Made by a program: the position numbers and the translations under genes. The notes beneath the pieces were generated by a model. The model saw nothing but the letters and a program-made list of their open reading frames with translations, searched no databases and was not told the origin of the DNA. From Methanosarcinales archaeon (GTDB lineage: Archaea > Halobacteriota > Methanosarcinia > Methanotrichales > Methanotrichaceae): a DNA stretch of 30,627 bases. Positions 13,543-21,233 of this stretch are shown piece by piece. The stretch's first letter is position 1; each line of letters opens with the position of its first letter. The stretch lies in the NCBI GenBank assembly GCA_013415595.1, contig JAAEEW010000041.1, positions 1-30,627 of the forward strand. The letters run 5' to 3'.

Positions 13543-14052
13543 CTACCGGAATTGGCGGTCCTTGGCCAGCCGCTCGAACCGCTCTGCGATGCCTTTCCAG
13601 TGGGAGCCCTGCCAGTAGGTCTGCCCGCAGGCCAGGCACCTCCAGGCGATCTTGCACTCCTTTGTCTGCTCCTCGAAATCCCCCGGTGATTCAATCGAAG
13701 ATCCTTCCATGGCCGGGGATTCTTCCGCAACCAGAGATTCTTCCCGGACCAGAGGGCCGTTGCATAGCGTGCACCTGGCCGGCTCCTGCTGAAATGTGAC
13801 GCCGGCCCTGGCCATCTCCTGGAGCTGATCGTCCAGCCGGGAGGAGCGGATCAGTATGCAGTCCTGGCCGGCCCGGGCGCAGGCCTGCGATAGCTCCCGG
13901 TCCCGGGTGATGAGGGTTCTCCCACCCTCCCTGGCCCGGCTCATCAGCCCCCGGTCATCTTCGTCGCCCGGATTTTCCACGTCCAGCCCGGCCATCCGCA
14001 GCCCGCGGCCCAGGCGAAGGAGCATGTGGTCCACCAGGAAGGCCCCTTTCAT
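13543..14052 (-). CDS. Mut7-C (PIN-like) RNase domain protein with C4 zinc ribbon
   Basis: FLVDHMLLRLGRGLRMAGLD, LITRDREL, RCTLCNGPL and RCLACGQTYWQGSHW. Confidence 0.9.
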   Translation of the reverse strand: MKGAFLVDHMLLRLGRGLRMAGLDVENPGDEDDRGLMSRAREGGRTLITRDRELSQACARAGQDCILIRSSRLDDQLQEMARAGVTFQQEPARCTLCNGPLVREESLVAEESPAMEGSSIESPGDFEEQTKECKIAWRCLACGQTYWQGSHWKGIAERFERLAKDRQFR

Positions 14053-14108
14053 AGCTGGAGAATGGAAGGCCGCAACTATTTATCAATTGAGCCGAATTTT
14101 TGGGAGCG

Positions 14109-16028
14109 ATGAAGAAGGCCATGAGCAATGTGGACGCGGCCGCCATGGTCGCCGAGCTGCAGGAGCGGCTGGTGGGCGGCTTTGTGGGCAAGGCCTACCA
14201 GATCACCGGAGACTCCGTCTGGATCACCGTTCAGTCCCCGGCCGAGGGCCGACTGGACCTGCTGATCGAGGCCGGCAAGCGCATCCACATAACGAGGGGG
14301 GAGCGGAAAGCCTCCAAGACCCCGCCCCAGTTCCCGACCATGCTCCGGGCCCACCTGTCCGGGGGCCGCATCGCCGCCGTGGAGCAGTACGACTTCGACC
14401 GGGTGGTGCAGATCACGGTGGAGAGAAGCGGCGGAAAGCGACTGCTGGTGGTGGAACTCTTCCCCAAGGGAAACGTCGTCCTCCTGGACGAGGAGATGAA
14501 GATAATTCTCCCTCTCCGGCCCATGGCCTTCCGGGGGAGGAAGCTGGTGGCCGGGGAGGAGTACCTCTACCACTACGGCCAGCAGGACCCCCGGTCCGTA
14601 TCCCTGGAGTACCTGACCAACCTGCTGACCACCTCCGATGCCGACCTGGTGCGAACCATCGTGCGGGGCCTGAACATGGGCGGGGTCTACGGCGAGGAGG
14701 TCTGCCTGAGGGCCGGCCTGGAGAAGAACCGACCGGCGGCCACCCTGAATCCCGAAGAGATGGTGAGGGTCCGCGATTCCCTGAGGGCGGTCTTTTGCCT
14801 GGAGGAGGTCCAGCCCCGGATCGTTTTGCAGGACGGCCAGCCCCTAGACGTGATCCCCTCCCCCCTCCAGGTTTACCGGGAGCGGGAGGCCAGGCCCTTC
14901 ACCAGGTTCAGCGAGGCTCTGGACGCCTTCTTCGTGGCCGAGGAGCCCGCGCAGAAGAAGACGGCCATAGACCGCAGGCTGGAGATCCAGCAGCGGGCCA
15001 TCCAGGAGTTCGAGGCCCTGGAGAGGGAGAGGGCTCTTCTCGGAGAGATGGTCTACCAGCACTACGGAGAGATAGATGCCATTCTGAGGGTGATTGCCGG
15101 GGCCAGGGAGAAGGGATTTTCCTACCAGGAGATCTGGGACCGCATAAGCGAGTCCGGAATGCCGAAGGCCCAGGCCATCAGGTCCCTGGACTACAGGGGG
15201 GAGTTCAGGATGCAGGTGGAAGACCGGGAGCTGGAGCTGAACGCCGAGCTGACCGTTCCCCAGAACGCAAAGCGCTACTACGACCGGGCCAAGGAGGCGG
15301 GCAAGAAGCACTCCGGAGCGGTGAGCGCCTACGAGGCCACCCTGCAGCTAAAAGACAGGAAGGCGGAGCCCCGCAAGTCGAAGGGCCCGGTCCTGCGCAG
15401 GAGAAAGCCCCGCTGGTTCGAGAGGTTCCGGTGGTTCACGTCCTCAGACGACTTCCTGGTGATCGGCGGCCGGGACGTGGACAGCAACGAGGAGATCTAC
15501 GCCAAGTACCTGGAGAAGAGGGACCTGGCCCTGCACACCGACGCCCCCGGGGCGCCCCTGACGGTGATCAAGACCGAGGGCCGGGAGGTGCCGGAGACCA
15601 CCATCCAGGAGGCGGCCCAGTTCGCCGTCTCCTACAGCAGCATCTGGAAGGGGGGGCTGGCCGAGGGCGACTGCTACCTGGTGAACGGCGACCAGGTGAC
15701 CAAGACCCCGGAGCCGGGGGAGTTCCTGCGAAAGGGGGCCTTCGTCATCCGGGGAGAGCGCCGCTACTTCCGGGACGTCCCGGTGGGTGTGGCAGTGGGC
15801 ATCGCCGGGGATATGCTCATCGGCGGGCCGGTCTATGCCATCGAGGAGCGGGCCGATCCGGTGGTGGTAATCGAGCCGGGGGAGTTCAACGCCGACGACC
15901 TGGCCAAGCGGATCTACCGCCAGTTTGCGGAGAAGTACGAGGACAAGAGGGTGATCAAGGCCATAGCCCCCACCGACCTGATCGTCTCCTTCCTGCCGCC
16001 GGGAGGCTCCAGGGTGCGGGAGAGGTAG
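14109..16028 (+). CDS. rqcH: Ribosome quality-control protein RqcH/Rqc2 (NFACT family)
   Basis: MSNVDAAAMVAEL, FPTMLRAHLSGGRI, QYDFDRVV, VELFPKGNVVL, TVPQNAKRYYDRAK, WFERFRWF, GGRDVDSNE, SKTPEPGEFL-like KTPEPGEFLRKGAFVIRGER. Confidence 0.95.
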   Translation: MKKAMSNVDAAAMVAELQERLVGGFVGKAYQITGDSVWITVQSPAEGRLDLLIEAGKRIHITRGERKASKTPPQFPTMLRAHLSGGRIAAVEQYDFDRVVQITVERSGGKRLLVVELFPKGNVVLLDEEMKIILPLRPMAFRGRKLVAGEEYLYHYGQQDPRSVSLEYLTNLLTTSDADLVRTIVRGLNMGGVYGEEVCLRAGLEKNRPAATLNPEEMVRVRDSLRAVFCLEEVQPRIVLQDGQPLDVIPSPLQVYREREARPFTRFSEALDAFFVAEEPAQKKTAIDRRLEIQQRAIQEFEALERERALLGEMVYQHYGEIDAILRVIAGAREKGFSYQEIWDRISESGMPKAQAIRSLDYRGEFRMQVEDRELELNAELTVPQNAKRYYDRAKEAGKKHSGAVSAYEATLQLKDRKAEPRKSKGPVLRRRKPRWFERFRWFTSSDDFLVIGGRDVDSNEEIYAKYLEKRDLALHTDAPGAPLTVIKTEGREVPETTIQEAAQFAVSYSSIWKGGLAEGDCYLVNGDQVTKTPEPGEFLRKGAFVIRGERRYFRDVPVGVAVGIAGDMLIGGPVYAIEERADPVVVIEPGEFNADDLAKRIYRQFAEKYEDKRVIKAIAPTDLIVSFLPPGGSRVRER

Positions 16029-16080
16029 AGACTCCGGCCCCGGATGAATCCGGCCGTTCCCGAGGACCGTTCATACTATA

Positions 16081-16098
16081 AAAAGAAAGGTTTAAAGT
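16081..16098 (+). promoter_or_regulatory. BRE/TATA promoter of ilvA
   Basis: Purine-rich aaaagaaagg followed by tttaaagt, ending about 21 nt before ATG 16120. Confidence 0.55.
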
Positions 16099-16119
16099 AC
16101 TTGGCGCAGACATTCTGTC

Positions 16120-17325
16120 ATGATTTCTCTGGCCGAGTTTCAAGATGCTGCCCGGGTCCTCCAGGGCAGGATCCTGCCTACGCCCCTGATCTACAGCCCC
16201 ACCTTCAGCCAGATGAGCGGAGCGGAAGTTTACCTCAAGCTGGAGTGCCTGCAGAAGGGCGGCTCCTTCAAGGTCCGGGGGGCCACCTACAAGGTGCAGT
16301 CCCGCCGGCAAGAGATCGGCCCTGGGGGAGTGGTGGCCGCCTCCGCCGGAAACCACGCCCAGGGGGTGGCCCTGGCCGCCAGGGACGCCGGGGTCCCGGC
16401 CAGGATCGTAATGCCCAGGTGGGTCTCCATCAGCAAGCAGGAGGCCACCCGCCGCTACGGGGCAGAGGTGATCCTGCAGGGAGAGACCCTGGTGGAGAGC
16501 ATCGCCCTGGCCCGGGAGATGGCCGGGGAGGGCCGGACCTTCATCCACCCCTACGACGATCGGGAGATCGTGACCGGCCAGGGAACCATAGGGCTGGAGA
16601 TCGTGGAGGATCTGCCGGACGTAGACTGCATCTTCGTGCCCCTGGGCGGCGGGGGGCTGATCAGCGGCATAGCCCTGGCCGCCAGAGCCCTGAGGCCAGA
16701 GGTCCGGATGGTGGGGGTGCAGGCCGCCTCCTGCCCCTCCGCCCGGGCGGCCCTGCAGGCCGGCGAGCCGGTGGAGGTCGCAGCCCAGAAGTCCATCGCC
16801 GACGCCATTACCGTCACCCGGGTGGGAGACCTGAACTTCCCCATCATCCGGGACTGTGTGGACCATGTGGCCCTGGTGGAGGAGGACCAGATAGCTGCGG
16901 CCATACTGATGCTCCTGGAGCGAAAAAAGGTGCTGGCCGAGGGCGCCGGAGCCGCGCCCCTGGCCGCCCTCCTGAACATGACCGCCTCCGTAGCCCGGGG
17001 GAGCAAGGTGGTGCTGGTGGTCTCCGGCGGAAACCTGGACCGCACCCTCCTGGACCGCATCTTGCGGCAGGGGATGCTGCACAGCGGCCGGATCATGCGC
17101 TTCTCCGTCTGCCTGGAGGACGTCCCCGGCTCTCTGGCCCGGCTGCTATCCCTGATGGCCGAGCAGGAGGCCAACGTGCTGCACATCCGCCACGTGCGAA
17201 GCGAGCGGGAGCTGCCCATCTGCGCCAGCCGGGTGGAGGTGGAGATGGAGACCCGGGGCTTCGAGCACGTGAAGAGGATAGCCGAGGCGCTGAGGCAGGC
17301 CGGGTACCGCATGGAGATGAAGTGA
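16120..17325 (+). CDS. ilvA: Threonine ammonia-lyase with C-terminal ACT domain
   Basis: KLECLQKGGSFKVRGA (PLP Lys), ASAGNHAQG, HPYDD, GQGTIGLE, PLGGGGL, EGAGA, SGGN, and ACT domain LEDVPGSLARLL. Confidence 0.95.
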   Translation: MISLAEFQDAARVLQGRILPTPLIYSPTFSQMSGAEVYLKLECLQKGGSFKVRGATYKVQSRRQEIGPGGVVAASAGNHAQGVALAARDAGVPARIVMPRWVSISKQEATRRYGAEVILQGETLVESIALAREMAGEGRTFIHPYDDREIVTGQGTIGLEIVEDLPDVDCIFVPLGGGGLISGIALAARALRPEVRMVGVQAASCPSARAALQAGEPVEVAAQKSIADAITVTRVGDLNFPIIRDCVDHVALVEEDQIAAAILMLLERKKVLAEGAGAAPLAALLNMTASVARGSKVVLVVSGGNLDRTLLDRILRQGMLHSGRIMRFSVCLEDVPGSLARLLSLMAEQEANVLHIRHVRSERELPICASRVEVEMETRGFEHVKRIAEALRQAGYRMEMK

Positions 17326-17351
17326 GACTTAGATGAAGATGAGGTGAGACT
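17315..17351. repeat. 15-bp direct repeat duplicating the ilvA 3' end
   Basis: agatgaagtgagact (17315-17329) and agatgaggtgagact (17337-17351), one mismatch. Confidence 0.75.
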
Positions 17352-18308: not shown

Positions 18309-18334
18309 AAGTAGTATAAAAAAGTAGTATAAAA
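18309..18334. repeat. Perfect 13-bp tandem repeat AAGTAGTATAAAA x2 in a divergent promoter
   Basis: Units at 18309-18321 and 18322-18334 are identical and each contains a TATA-like GTATAAAA. Confidence 0.85.
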
Positions 18335-18411: not shown

Positions 18412-18912
18412 ATGGATTTCGAGCTCCACCCTGCCGTATCCCTGAAGGCGGGCACCTTCAACCTGCTCATCGCCCCGGAGAGCATGCTGGCCGGGGCCCT
18501 GAAAGACCACCTGGAGCTCCAGCGCTACAAGATGCTCTACGTCTGCGGCAACTACTCCCGCATACTGACCGGGCTGGACCGCAGGTTTCGAAACCTGGAG
18601 GTGAGGAGGGCCTTCACCGCCTTCCAGCTCCTGACCGTGCTGGAGGAGGCCGGACAGACCATCGTCCTGGTGGAGCACGACCCCACCCTGTACGAGGACC
18701 TGATGGAGATGGCGGACTACGTGGCCCGGGCCCTGAAGGACGCCGCCGCCCGCTCCCTGGTGCTGCTCTACTCCCCGGCCAGCGACCCCTTCCTGGAGGA
18801 GATGGCCCGCCTGGCGGACCGGGCGTTCTTCTTCAGCCAGCCGCCCCAGGCCCGCCGCCCGGGAAAGTCCCGCCGGACCACCACCGGCCAGTCCACCCTG
18901 GAGGCATTCTGA
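18412..18912 (+). CDS. Inactivated RecA/RadA-like P-loop protein (ImuA-like) associated with PolB2
   Basis: GTFNLLIAPE at the Walker A position without GxxGxGKT, EVRRAFTAFQL (compare RadA ARAYNSDHQ) and Walker-B-like IVLVEHD. Heads an operon with PolB2. Confidence 0.7.
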   Translation: MDFELHPAVSLKAGTFNLLIAPESMLAGALKDHLELQRYKMLYVCGNYSRILTGLDRRFRNLEVRRAFTAFQLLTVLEEAGQTIVLVEHDPTLYEDLMEMADYVARALKDAAARSLVLLYSPASDPFLEEMARLADRAFFFSQPPQARRPGKSRRTTTGQSTLEAF

Positions 18913-19338
18913 TTGGGCCGCAGCTTCGAGAGCGTGCGGATGGGGGCCCGGGAGGTCTCGGAACGGTGGCTCAAGGCCAGGCGGGCCCTGAAGAAGGACG
19001 AGCAGATCTACGCCCAACGGCTGGCGGAGATGGCCAGGAAGCACTCCAGCGAGGCCTTCTATGCCTTCGACGACCCCCTGGAGGCCGCCGTGTTCTCCGT
19101 CCTGCTGGAGATGATGAAGGAGATGGAGGCGGGAAAGGCCGGCGGAGGGCCCATGGAGGGCGCCGGCTGGTGCCTGGCCGACCACGACCACGACGGCAAG
19201 CGCGGCCAAGACGGCCGGAGCGGCGATGAAGGAGGGACGGGAGGAGGAACAGAATGTGGATCTTCGACTCCGGATACCGGGGATGGGTCGAGCTGTGGGC
19301 CAAGAAGGGACCAAAGTCGATCGAAGAGAGCAGGATAG
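18913..19338 (+). CDS. Small alpha-helical PolB2-associated protein (arCOG07300-like) with low-complexity C-terminal extension
   Basis: TTG start abuts the preceding TGA. The helical core is MGRSFESVR...HSSEAFYAFDDPLEAAVFSVLLEMMKE. The last ~65 aa are Gly/Asp-rich and overlap polB2 by 85 bp. Confidence 0.75.
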   Translation: MGRSFESVRMGAREVSERWLKARRALKKDEQIYAQRLAEMARKHSSEAFYAFDDPLEAAVFSVLLEMMKEMEAGKAGGGPMEGAGWCLADHDHDGKRGQDGRSGDEGGTGGGTECGSSTPDTGDGSSCGPRRDQSRSKRAG

Positions 19339-21233
19339 CCTGCCCCCGGTCCTTCTATCTCCACCTGAAGGACCCCCACCCCCACTGGGAGATGCTGGAG
19401 GCCCTGGAGGGACTGTACGGGGCGGAGGAGTGCCGTTTCCAGACCGTCTACGGGCCCCGGGAGGGCTACCGGGTCTTCGCCGGGCGAGGGGTGGCGGAGA
19501 AGATCGAGCGGCAGACCAGGTTCCAGGCCGAGCTGTACAACGTGAATGTCAGGATGGACCAGCGCTTCCTGGCGGAGAGGGGCGGCTTTCCCTGCAGCTA
19601 CCCCCGGGAGTCCAGGTTCGCCCACAGCTTCCCCGTTCCCCTCAGCCGCCTGGAGATGAAGGTGCAGGGCAACCCCAGCCTGGACCGGTCGGTTTGCTCC
19701 CTGGTGGTCGATGACGGCCGGAGAAGGGTCCTGGAAGGCCCGGAGAAGGCGGTGCTGGAGGACCTGTTCGAGCTGGTGAAGAGCGCCAACCCGGACGTCA
19801 TCCTCTTCCCCCAGGCCGACCTGTGGACCGGGCTCATGGAGGCCCGGGCCCGGCACTACGGACTGGAGGTCACCTTCAGCCGCAGCGGCCGGTTCCGGAA
19901 GCTGGACTCCCGCCCCTACTGGAGCTACGGCAAGGTCAACCACAAGCACGCCGCCCTGATCCCCGAGGGCCGGATACTCATAGACACCGAAAAGAGCTTC
20001 ACCTACCGGGAGGGAGGCCTGGCGGGGGTGCTCCTGGCCTCCCGCCTCTCCGGGCTGTGCCCCAACCTGACCTCCCGCTTCACCCCCGGAACCCTGATAT
20101 CCAGCTACGAGGTCTACGAGGCCCTGGCCCGGGGGATGGCCGTGCCCTTCCGGAAGCGGGACCCGGAGAGGGTGCGGGATCTGGCCGAGCTGAAGGCCGC
20201 GGACAGGGGGGGCATGATCTTCCAGCCCCGGCCGGGGGTCTACGAGAAGGTGCACCAGCTGGATTTCACCTCCCTCTACCCCACCATAATCGTCAACTAC
20301 AACCTGTCCCCGGAGACCGTAGCCCAGCCGGCCCAGTGCAGGGGATTCCTGAGCACCATCCTGGAGCCCCTGCTGAACCTGCGAATCGAGACCAAGAGGC
20401 TGAAGAAGTCCCAGCCTGAGATGAAGGGCCTGGACGCCGTCCTGAAGTGGATGCTGGTTACCTGCTTTGGCTACACCGGCTACCGCAACGCCAAGTTCGG
20501 CCAGATAGAGGTGCACGAGCACATCACCGGCATATCCAGGGATCTCCTGCTGCAGGTGAAGGACATCGCCGAGGACATGGGACTGGAGGTGCTGCACGGC
20601 ATCGTCGACTGCCTATGGGTGCGAGGGGGGCCGGCATCCGGGTTCAAGGAGGCGGTGGAGAGGGAGACGGGGATACTCACCGAGGCCGAGTCTTACCACT
20701 GGATCGCCTTTCTGCCCATGAGCGACGGCTCCGGGGCCTACAACCGCTATTTCGGCAGGCTCTCCGACGGCCAGGTCAAGGTCAGAGGGGTGGCCGCCCG
20801 CCGGGGGGACACGCCCCCCTACGTGCGCCGGATGCAGATGGAGATGCTCCAGGCCCTGGCCGGGGCGGAGGACCTGACCAGCCTGGCCCAGCGGGAGGAG
20901 CAGATGAGGAGCATCGGCCAGCGCTACATCCTGGAGCTTCCCGGCGCCAGCCCGGAGGAGATGGTCATCCGCCGCCGTGTGAGCAGGCTGTCCTACACCC
21001 GGCGCTGCGCCGAGGGATCGGCGGTGGAGGCCTTTCGCAGGCGAAAAATCCAGGTGGCACCGGGCATGGAGATCGGCTACGTGGTCCGGGACGGCAGGAG
21101 GTGGTCCGTGGAGACGGAGTGGGACGCCCGGGACTTCGACATCGGATATTACCGGACCCTGGCGGAGAAGGCCTGGAAGGAGGTGGCCTTCGTCTTCGAA
21201 TGGCAGAGGGAGAAAAGAAGAGATGCCGTCTGA
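19254..21233 (+). CDS. polB2: Family B DNA polymerase, PolB2 group (exonuclease-dead, variant motifs)
   Basis: Motif A DFTSLYPTII intact. Motif B KWMLVTCFGYTGY replaces KxxxNSxYG, motif C HGIVDC replaces YGDTDS, and Exo motifs are not recognisable. RBS ggaggagg upstream. Confidence 0.92.
   Translation: MWIFDSGYRGWVELWAKKGPKSIEESRIACPRSFYLHLKDPHPHWEMLEALEGLYGAEECRFQTVYGPREGYRVFAGRGVAEKIERQTRFQAELYNVNVRMDQRFLAERGGFPCSYPRESRFAHSFPVPLSRLEMKVQGNPSLDRSVCSLVVDDGRRRVLEGPEKAVLEDLFELVKSANPDVILFPQADLWTGLMEARARHYGLEVTFSRSGRFRKLDSRPYWSYGKVNHKHAALIPEGRILIDTEKSFTYREGGLAGVLLASRLSGLCPNLTSRFTPGTLISSYEVYEALARGMAVPFRKRDPERVRDLAELKAADRGGMIFQPRPGVYEKVHQLDFTSLYPTIIVNYNLSPETVAQPAQCRGFLSTILEPLLNLRIETKRLKKSQPEMKGLDAVLKWMLVTCFGYTGYRNAKFGQIEVHEHITGISRDLLLQVKDIAEDMGLEVLHGIVDCLWVRGGPASGFKEAVERETGILTEAESYHWIAFLPMSDGSGAYNRYFGRLSDGQVKVRGVAARRGDTPPYVRRMQMEMLQALAGAEDLTSLAQREEQMRSIGQRYILELPGASPEEMVIRRRVSRLSYTRRCAEGSAVEAFRRRKIQVAPGMEIGYVVRDGRRWSVETEWDARDFDIGYYRTLAEKAWKEVAFVFEWQREKRRDAV

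Follow-up and report, generated by a model that had tools for sequence, protein, structure and literature searches.

How does a translesion polymerase that has no clamp-binding motif of its own come to be held on the sliding clamp? The question is raised by a stretch of DNA of 30,627 nucleotides (hereafter, the window), which is contig C249 of a 1.94-Mb, 86%-complete, metagenome-assembled genome of the Methanotrichaceae. It holds three adjoining genes, iRadA, PPB2 and PolB2, and this cassette is the Methanotrichaceae copy of the published iRadA-PPB2-PolB2 mutasome operon, known from Makarova, Krupovic & Koonin 2014 (PMC4104785) and Timinskas, Timinskas & Venclovas 2025 (PMC11791011). Many archaeal iRadA proteins have been reported to carry PCNA motifs; such motifs are less frequent in PolB2 and seldom occur in both proteins. 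AlphaFold-Multimer and AlphaFold3 models placed the iRadA motifs in the PCNA pocket (PMC11791011). The arrangement in which iRadA carries the PCNA motif was therefore already published in silico in 2025, and the cassette is a new example of it, not a discovery. What the locus adds is an independent, clean example together with a genome-internal control of the specificity of the motif for PCNA clients.

Our answer, to which we give a probability of about 0.8, is that the terminal motif of iRadA would dock on PCNA and so tether the PolB2 complex. If the tail binds PCNA, this would explain how a translesion polymerase without a clamp motif is delivered to the clamp. A dead recombinase paralogue would then act as the tether, in parallel with bacterial ImuB, Pol V and the accessory subunits of eukaryotic Pol zeta.

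The iRadA protein

The iRadA gene (18412..18912, + strand) encodes the 166-aa ATPase-dead, RadA/Rad51-fold subunit of the PolB2 mutasome. A sequence search found 431 homologues, with labels including Methanothrix and Methanotrichaceae. The AF2 model, built from an alignment of 83 sequences, has a mean pLDDT of 87.7 and a pTM of 0.80. It consists of a globular RecA-fold core, residues 1-141 (18412..18834, + strand), in which beta strands and helices alternate over residues 1-140 (block pLDDT 81-98), and of a basic linker rich in Pro, Gly, Ser and Ala, residues 142-159 (18835..18888, + strand; pLDDT 50-64). The tail from residue 141 is predicted to be disordered, because the means of its 10-residue blocks reach only 64, 50 and 59.

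In the PDB, Foldseek ranks Rad51, RadA, DMC1 and RecA highest (probability 1.00; query-normalised TM-score up to 0.60), with residues 1-141 aligning onto the ATPase cores of Rad51 and RadA. The N-terminal helical domain is lacking, and the modelled 166-aa chain opens straight in the beta sheet. A motif scan of all 166 residues found no Walker A (GxxxxGK[ST]); the sole GKS, residues 151-153, lies inside the disordered tail. Pfam, NCBIfam and PADLOC gave no match for iRadA, and a profile of 83 homologues run against PDB sequences returned weak, Walker-B-like matches to ABC ATPases (E ~0.005). The kinship with RadA is thus detectable only at the level of the predicted fold. An earlier reading of the DNA, made from the letters alone (hereafter, the sequence-only reading), had called this a dead RadA-like protein, and the RecA/Rad51 fold, the missing Walker A and the operon shared with PPB2 and PolB2 bear that out.

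The window protein is 63% identical to its nearest full-length homologue and 89% identical to a variant with an internal deletion. This variant, P0002, is the closest database relative, has 131 aa and is found on 5 contigs. Direct repeats of CCTGGAGG at window positions 18792-18799 and 18897-18904 bracket exactly the 35 codons that P0002 lacks; the loss takes away the final helix and strand together with the linker and the motif's Gln, and leaves the end ...DPFLEAF. Judged from the repeats, P0002 appears to be a slippage deletion between them.

The C-terminal motif and its conservation

The last codons of the gene, CAG TCC ACC CTG GAG GCA TTC TGA (18889-18912), encode Q160-S-T-L-E-A-F166-stop, with the Gln codon starting at 18889 and the stop at 18910-18912. 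Sequence, translation and homologues together mark Q160-S-T-L163-E-A-F166 (18889..18909, + strand) as a putative PCNA-interacting, PIP-type motif at the extreme C-terminus. It is preceded by residues 144-159, PPQARRPGKSRRTTTG, and both the translation and the AF2 model agree with the position and sequence first proposed for it, at the end of the 166-aa ORF and after a disordered basic linker. The core residues of a PIP box (Gln at position 1, Leu, Ile or Met at position 4, an aromatic at position 7) are supplied by Q160, L163 and F166. The second aromatic or hydrophobic residue of position 8 has no counterpart: the chain stops at F166, and in relatives the place is taken by Ser or Thr or left empty. 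A PIP box is also expected in a flexible terminal region and to be conserved relative to its flanks, and here the tail has a pLDDT of 50-64 and shows the contrast in column entropy given below.

Among the 120 nearest iRadA homologues (52-89% identity), the tail of 113 contains Q..[LIMV]..[FYW], at 0 or 1 residue from the C-terminus in 112. The seven exceptions are four one-residue variants and three truncated proteins. The typical ending is Q-x-T-L-E-x-[F/Y/W], followed by nothing or by one Ser or Thr. At greater distance the motif thins out: the strict form occurs in 25 of 68 full-length representatives of clusters at 50% identity, and several others have near-variants. Because 43 of these 68 diverged representatives are without the strict motif, the PCNA-type tail is, as far as sequences tell, a feature of a clade and not universal in iRadA. 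The motif is kept at the C-terminus of homologues down to ~35% identity, with the linker next to it scrambled.

Position statistics were taken from 138 homologues selected for having the motif, so that Q and L define the match and only the remaining positions inform. T3 is found in 128 of them and E5 in 119. The aromatic at position 7 is Phe in 83, Tyr in 52 and Trp in 3. Column entropy is 0-1.5 bits at motif positions 1 and 3-7, against 2.1-3.4 bits in the 20 linker columns before them; these 20 residues are 24% K+R and 42% P/G/S/A. After the aromatic residue, 74 of the 138 have Ser, and in 49 (the window protein and 48 others, mostly with Phe) the aromatic residue ends the chain. The codons of T3 and L4 vary synonymously among homologues, the dominant codon pair being CTG GAG, and selection on the motif at the protein level is supported by these comparisons. 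The check proposed with the first reading, namely whether the terminal QxxLxxF is conserved, thus came out in its favour beside a hypervariable linker (112/120 close homologues, 25/68 cluster representatives).

PPB2 and PolB2

The gene of PPB2 (arCOG07300; 18913..19338, + strand) begins with a TTG that abuts the stop codon of iRadA. Published PPB2 proteins share an 'MGRT' arm in which R3 and R9 are conserved (PMC11791011). In the window the arm is MGRSFESVR (N-terminus MGRSFESVRMG...), and M1, G2, R3 and R9 are invariant in an alignment of 14 homologues. Residues 1-70 are the conserved three-helix core, with helices at 12-23, 28-44 and 55-76 in a low-confidence AF2 monomer (mean pLDDT 57.2). 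The rest is a unique Gly/Asp-rich tail, which gives the protein an atypical length of 141 aa. This Gly/Asp/Ser-rich tail of ~70 residues (window 19123-19338) is absent from 13 homologues, and it runs past the PolB2 start (19254), sharing 85 nt with that gene in another frame. Such a tail may have arisen recently by read-through.

PolB2, a Dpo2-type family B polymerase of 659 aa (19254..21233, + strand), matches NCBIfam NF004416 with 874 bits, the cut-off being 516. Motif A is kept as DFTSLYP at residue 337. Motif C reads HG-IVD-C at residue 448, and IVD replaces DxD in 118 of 120 PolB2 homologues. The N-terminus, MWIFDS, is common to homologues. The C-termini are heterogeneous. At that of the window protein (...EWQREKRRDAV) a Q..L..aromatic pattern is absent, and a loose match within the last 25 residues occurs in 1 of the 120 homologues. 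The claim of the sequence-only reading that the polymerase itself has no such motif at its C-terminus therefore holds for the PolB2 of the window and for nearly all relatives compared.

The motif among PCNA clients of the same genome

The genome of the window contains a PCNA gene (G000:C71:1986-2261, approximate), and it offers a control on how specific the motif is. We scanned 5,129 crude ORFs of at least 100 aa for Q.[ST]L..[FYW] within the last 12 residues. Five ORFs have this strict pattern, where 0.77 were expected, and they are FEN1, the RFC large subunit, EndoQ, NreA and iRadA; by this count the C-terminal motif of iRadA exceeds chance. A loose form of the motif is matched at 13 other crude-ORF ends, some of them of spurious ORFs. 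The sequences are QSTLDRWL in FEN1, QRSLFDFA in RFC-L and QTTLEDFL in NreA. The EndoQ homologue (G000:C173:1743-3026, L003; 2e-110 to P. furiosus EndoQ, PDB 5zb8) ends in QRSLFDF-stop. In addition, PolD DP2 ends in QTGLADFM, and the replicative PolB, near a contig end, carries QRNLFDFE. The C-terminal motifs of EndoQ and NreA have been validated experimentally (PMC4858679, PMC4929162), and that of NreA is genetically required for NreA function (PMC4929162).

These motifs also bear on the single aromatic residue of iRadA, which had raised the worry that binding might be weak. Such a concern finds no support here. The motifs of FEN1, RFC-L, PolD, PolB, NreA and EndoQ in this genome all have a single aromatic, at position 7, and none at position 8. 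The single-aromatic form is thus the local norm. For EndoQ motifs with one aromatic, a KD of 55 nM for PCNA has been measured (PMC4858679). A position 8 that is missing altogether is, in this genome, common only to iRadA and EndoQ; the EndoQ end QRSLFDF-stop suggests that the local PCNA tolerates motifs without a residue there.

Compared with canonical archaeal C-terminal PIP boxes of the form Qxxhxxaa (for example, A. fulgidus FEN1 QSTLDSFF, T. kodakarensis EndoQ QRSITEFL, and NreA), the iRadA motif is alike in Q1, Leu4 and the aromatic at 7, and in its extreme C-terminal site after a basic disordered flank. Its first five residues are nearly identical to those of the genome's own FEN1 motif (QSTLE and QSTLD, respectively). 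It differs at position 8, where validated boxes usually have a hydrophobic residue, whereas iRadA stops at Phe and its relatives have Ser or Thr.

Other explanations of the conserved tail

The iRadA end might be conserved for reasons that lie in the nucleotides, as the ribosome-binding site of PPB2 and as a stop/start junction that couples translation. A Shine-Dalgarno-like GGAGG for PPB2 does lie at 18900..18904 (+ strand), within the Leu-Glu-Ala codons CTG GAG GCA and 8 nt upstream of the TTG at 18913, which itself abuts the iRadA TGA. Moreover, E5 is unusually conserved for a PCNA-binding motif (119/138), with CTG GAG as the dominant codon pair. However, Q1, T3 and the aromatic at position 7 fall outside GGAGG and are conserved equally or better, the codons of T3 and L4 change synonymously, and seven loci without any PPB2 in them still have the iRadA ending QxTL(E/G)x(F/Y). 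The same peptide pattern also marks known PCNA clients elsewhere in the genome. We therefore hold a purely nucleotide-level explanation to be very unlikely. From the sequence, GGAGG is best seen as an added constraint on motif positions 4-5, not as an alternative explanation, and part of the Leu-Glu conservation may reflect the PPB2 ribosome-binding site. It is still harder to take the ending as a chance resemblance without function. The motif is short, with three defining residues, and loose matches do turn up at those 13 other crude-ORF ends, but its retention to ~35% identity beside a scrambled linker effectively refutes chance, and the other four of the five strict-pattern ORFs (0.77 expected) are known PCNA clients. 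We consider this reading practically negligible.

A conserved tail could also dock elsewhere, in a groove of PolB2 or PPB2, on RadA or RPA, or on the proteasome alpha ring through an HbYX-like end. The Ser that follows the aromatic in 74 of 138 homologues gives -A-Y-S endings that superficially resemble hydrophobic-Tyr-X, and in relatives some iRadA copies lie apart from PolB2. Yet the window protein and 48 homologues stop at the aromatic, mostly Phe, which does not fit HbYX, and the invariant Q, L and aromatic at i, i+3 and i+6 have the spacing that defines the PCNA motif. Apart from iRadA, the strict pattern occurs in this genome only in PCNA clients, and the published multimer models seat iRadA motifs in the PCNA pocket (PMC11791011). 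Docking on another partner is in our judgement quite unlikely. An HbYX proteasome-docking end was rejected for the window iRadA on its E-A-F terminus, with 49/138 chains stopping at the aromatic. The FxxA polymerisation motif of Rad51 was likewise rejected for the tail, in which the residue order is A-F and not F-x-x-A.

Proposed tethering of PolB2 and comparison with known mutasomes

Tethering to PCNA is thus the reading that we carry forward. In published models, the iRadA core binds PolB2 at a Rad51-oligomerisation-like beta-alpha motif that belongs to PolB2, and also binds the PPB2 N-terminal arm (PMC11791011). By analogy, the RecA-fold core of the window protein (residues 1-141) would be built into the PolB2 complex by binding PolB2 and the N-terminal arm of PPB2, giving a mutasome presumably composed of iRadA, a PPB2 trimer and PolB2. 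The basic linker of ~18 residues would serve as a flexible leash, at the end of which Q160-x-x-L163-x-x-F166 would enter the hydrophobic and Gln pockets of PCNA beneath the interdomain connector loop. The PolB2 complex, whose polymerase has no clamp motif, would in this way be held on the clamp at a damaged template, allowing translesion synthesis. Both the physical binding of iRadA to PCNA and its role in recruiting the polymerase are inferred. The proposal of the sequence-only reading that the accessory subunit could tether PolB2 to PCNA is supported in silico by the conservation of the tail, the PolB2 without a motif and the published work (PMC11791011).

The operon in the window agrees with the described PolB2 mutasome (PMC4104785, PMC11791011) in several respects. 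The gene order iRadA-PPB2-PolB2 is that of operon type 1a; the iRadA protein has a RecA/Rad51 core without an N-terminal domain or Walker A; the PPB2 arm is MGR(S/T), and PolB2 has IVD for DxD; and the PCNA motif is on iRadA, not on PolB2. The supplement of PMC11791011 gives QRTLEAF as the motif of iRadA in Methanothrix harundinacea; the operon is of type 1a, and its PolB2 carries IVD and is without a PCNA motif. The window QSTLEAF belongs to the same family and motif type. The window copy differs from the described system in that no DUF72 or Orc1/Cdc6 gene is adjacent, and in that its PPB2 has the extra Gly/Asp-rich tail of ~70 residues with the 85-nt overlap with the PolB2 start. A search of the same 86%-complete genome for DUF72, a published neighbour of PolB2, found none.

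The bacterial ImuA-ImuB-DnaE2 and Pol V (UmuD'2C-RecA) systems similarly bring together an error-prone polymerase, a RecA-fold protein and a small accessory subunit. In ImuA-ImuB-DnaE2, the clamp-binding motif sits on ImuB, an accessory subunit without catalytic activity, instead of on the polymerase. The bacterial mutasomes use a family C or Y polymerase with the beta clamp, whereas the system in the window uses family B with PCNA, and the fold of ImuA and the tethering role of ImuB would be combined in one RecA-fold protein, iRadA. The likeness is best described as an analogy and not as homology of the system. The comparison with ImuB that had been drawn at the outset accordingly stands for function, with a dead accessory subunit that would carry the clamp motif, and fails for relatedness, the proteins being of unrelated families. 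Parallels between Pol V and the PolB2 mutasome have also been drawn in PMC11791011.

iRadA copies in related genomes

Across 61 genomes of the same family, iRadA matches are present in 42 and PolB2 matches in 35. In most of the genomes with PolB2 there is one match to it, and iRadA is often multi-copy (genomes G012-G060, e.g., L008, L015, L027, L031 and L032), 3-13 matches being common. G049 has the most, 42, and many of the matches across genomes are fragments interrupted by in-frame stops. There are iRadA-PPB2 pairs, and also solitary iRadA genes, at a large distance from PolB2. In one complete genome, for example, the neighbours of PolB2 are DUF72 and a TnpB-like gene; the iRadA copy that matches best is ~70 kb away and lacks an adjacent PPB2. 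Another complete genome, G024, has two solitary iRadA copies with 94% nucleotide identity over ~590 bp, both of which keep QRTLEAYS. The solitary copies examined keep the PCNA-type tail, ending 0 or 1 residue after the single aromatic.

In relatives iRadA often occurs in several copies and away from PolB2, so it may do more than tether PolB2. A more specific version is that iRadA paralogues act as free PCNA-binding adaptors or competitors, which would regulate access to the clamp independently of PolB2 and form a 'position-8-less' PIP subclass; on the sequences at hand we regard this as unlikely. Two further ideas on the copies were dropped. Carriage of multi-copy iRadA as cargo of a large repeated mobile element is unsupported, as blastn of three copies in one complete genome gave gene-sized identity and no shared flanks. 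The existence of iRadA-bearing genomes without PolB2 was not established, one candidate having a PolB2 whose start runs off a contig end.

A DUF72 gene beside PolB2 in a complete, Methanothrix-like genome (G017; L027:2953-3936, - strand) ends in QFTLGEF-stop. This is a C-terminal PCNA-type motif that ends at the aromatic residue, as in iRadA.

Surroundings of the cassette

Upstream of the cassette, two ORFs on the + strand, 13856-16081 (741 aa) and 16044-17336 (430 aa), have no Pfam, NCBIfam or PADLOC match; in this DNA of 65% GC they may be genuine orphans, or else spurious reading frames. Closer to the cassette, the 150-nt gap between a divergent ion-channel gene and iRadA contains a perfect tandem repeat, two copies of AAGTAGTATAAAA at window 18309-18334, which forms a duplicated TATA-like box and may act as a promoter or regulatory element for the cassette.
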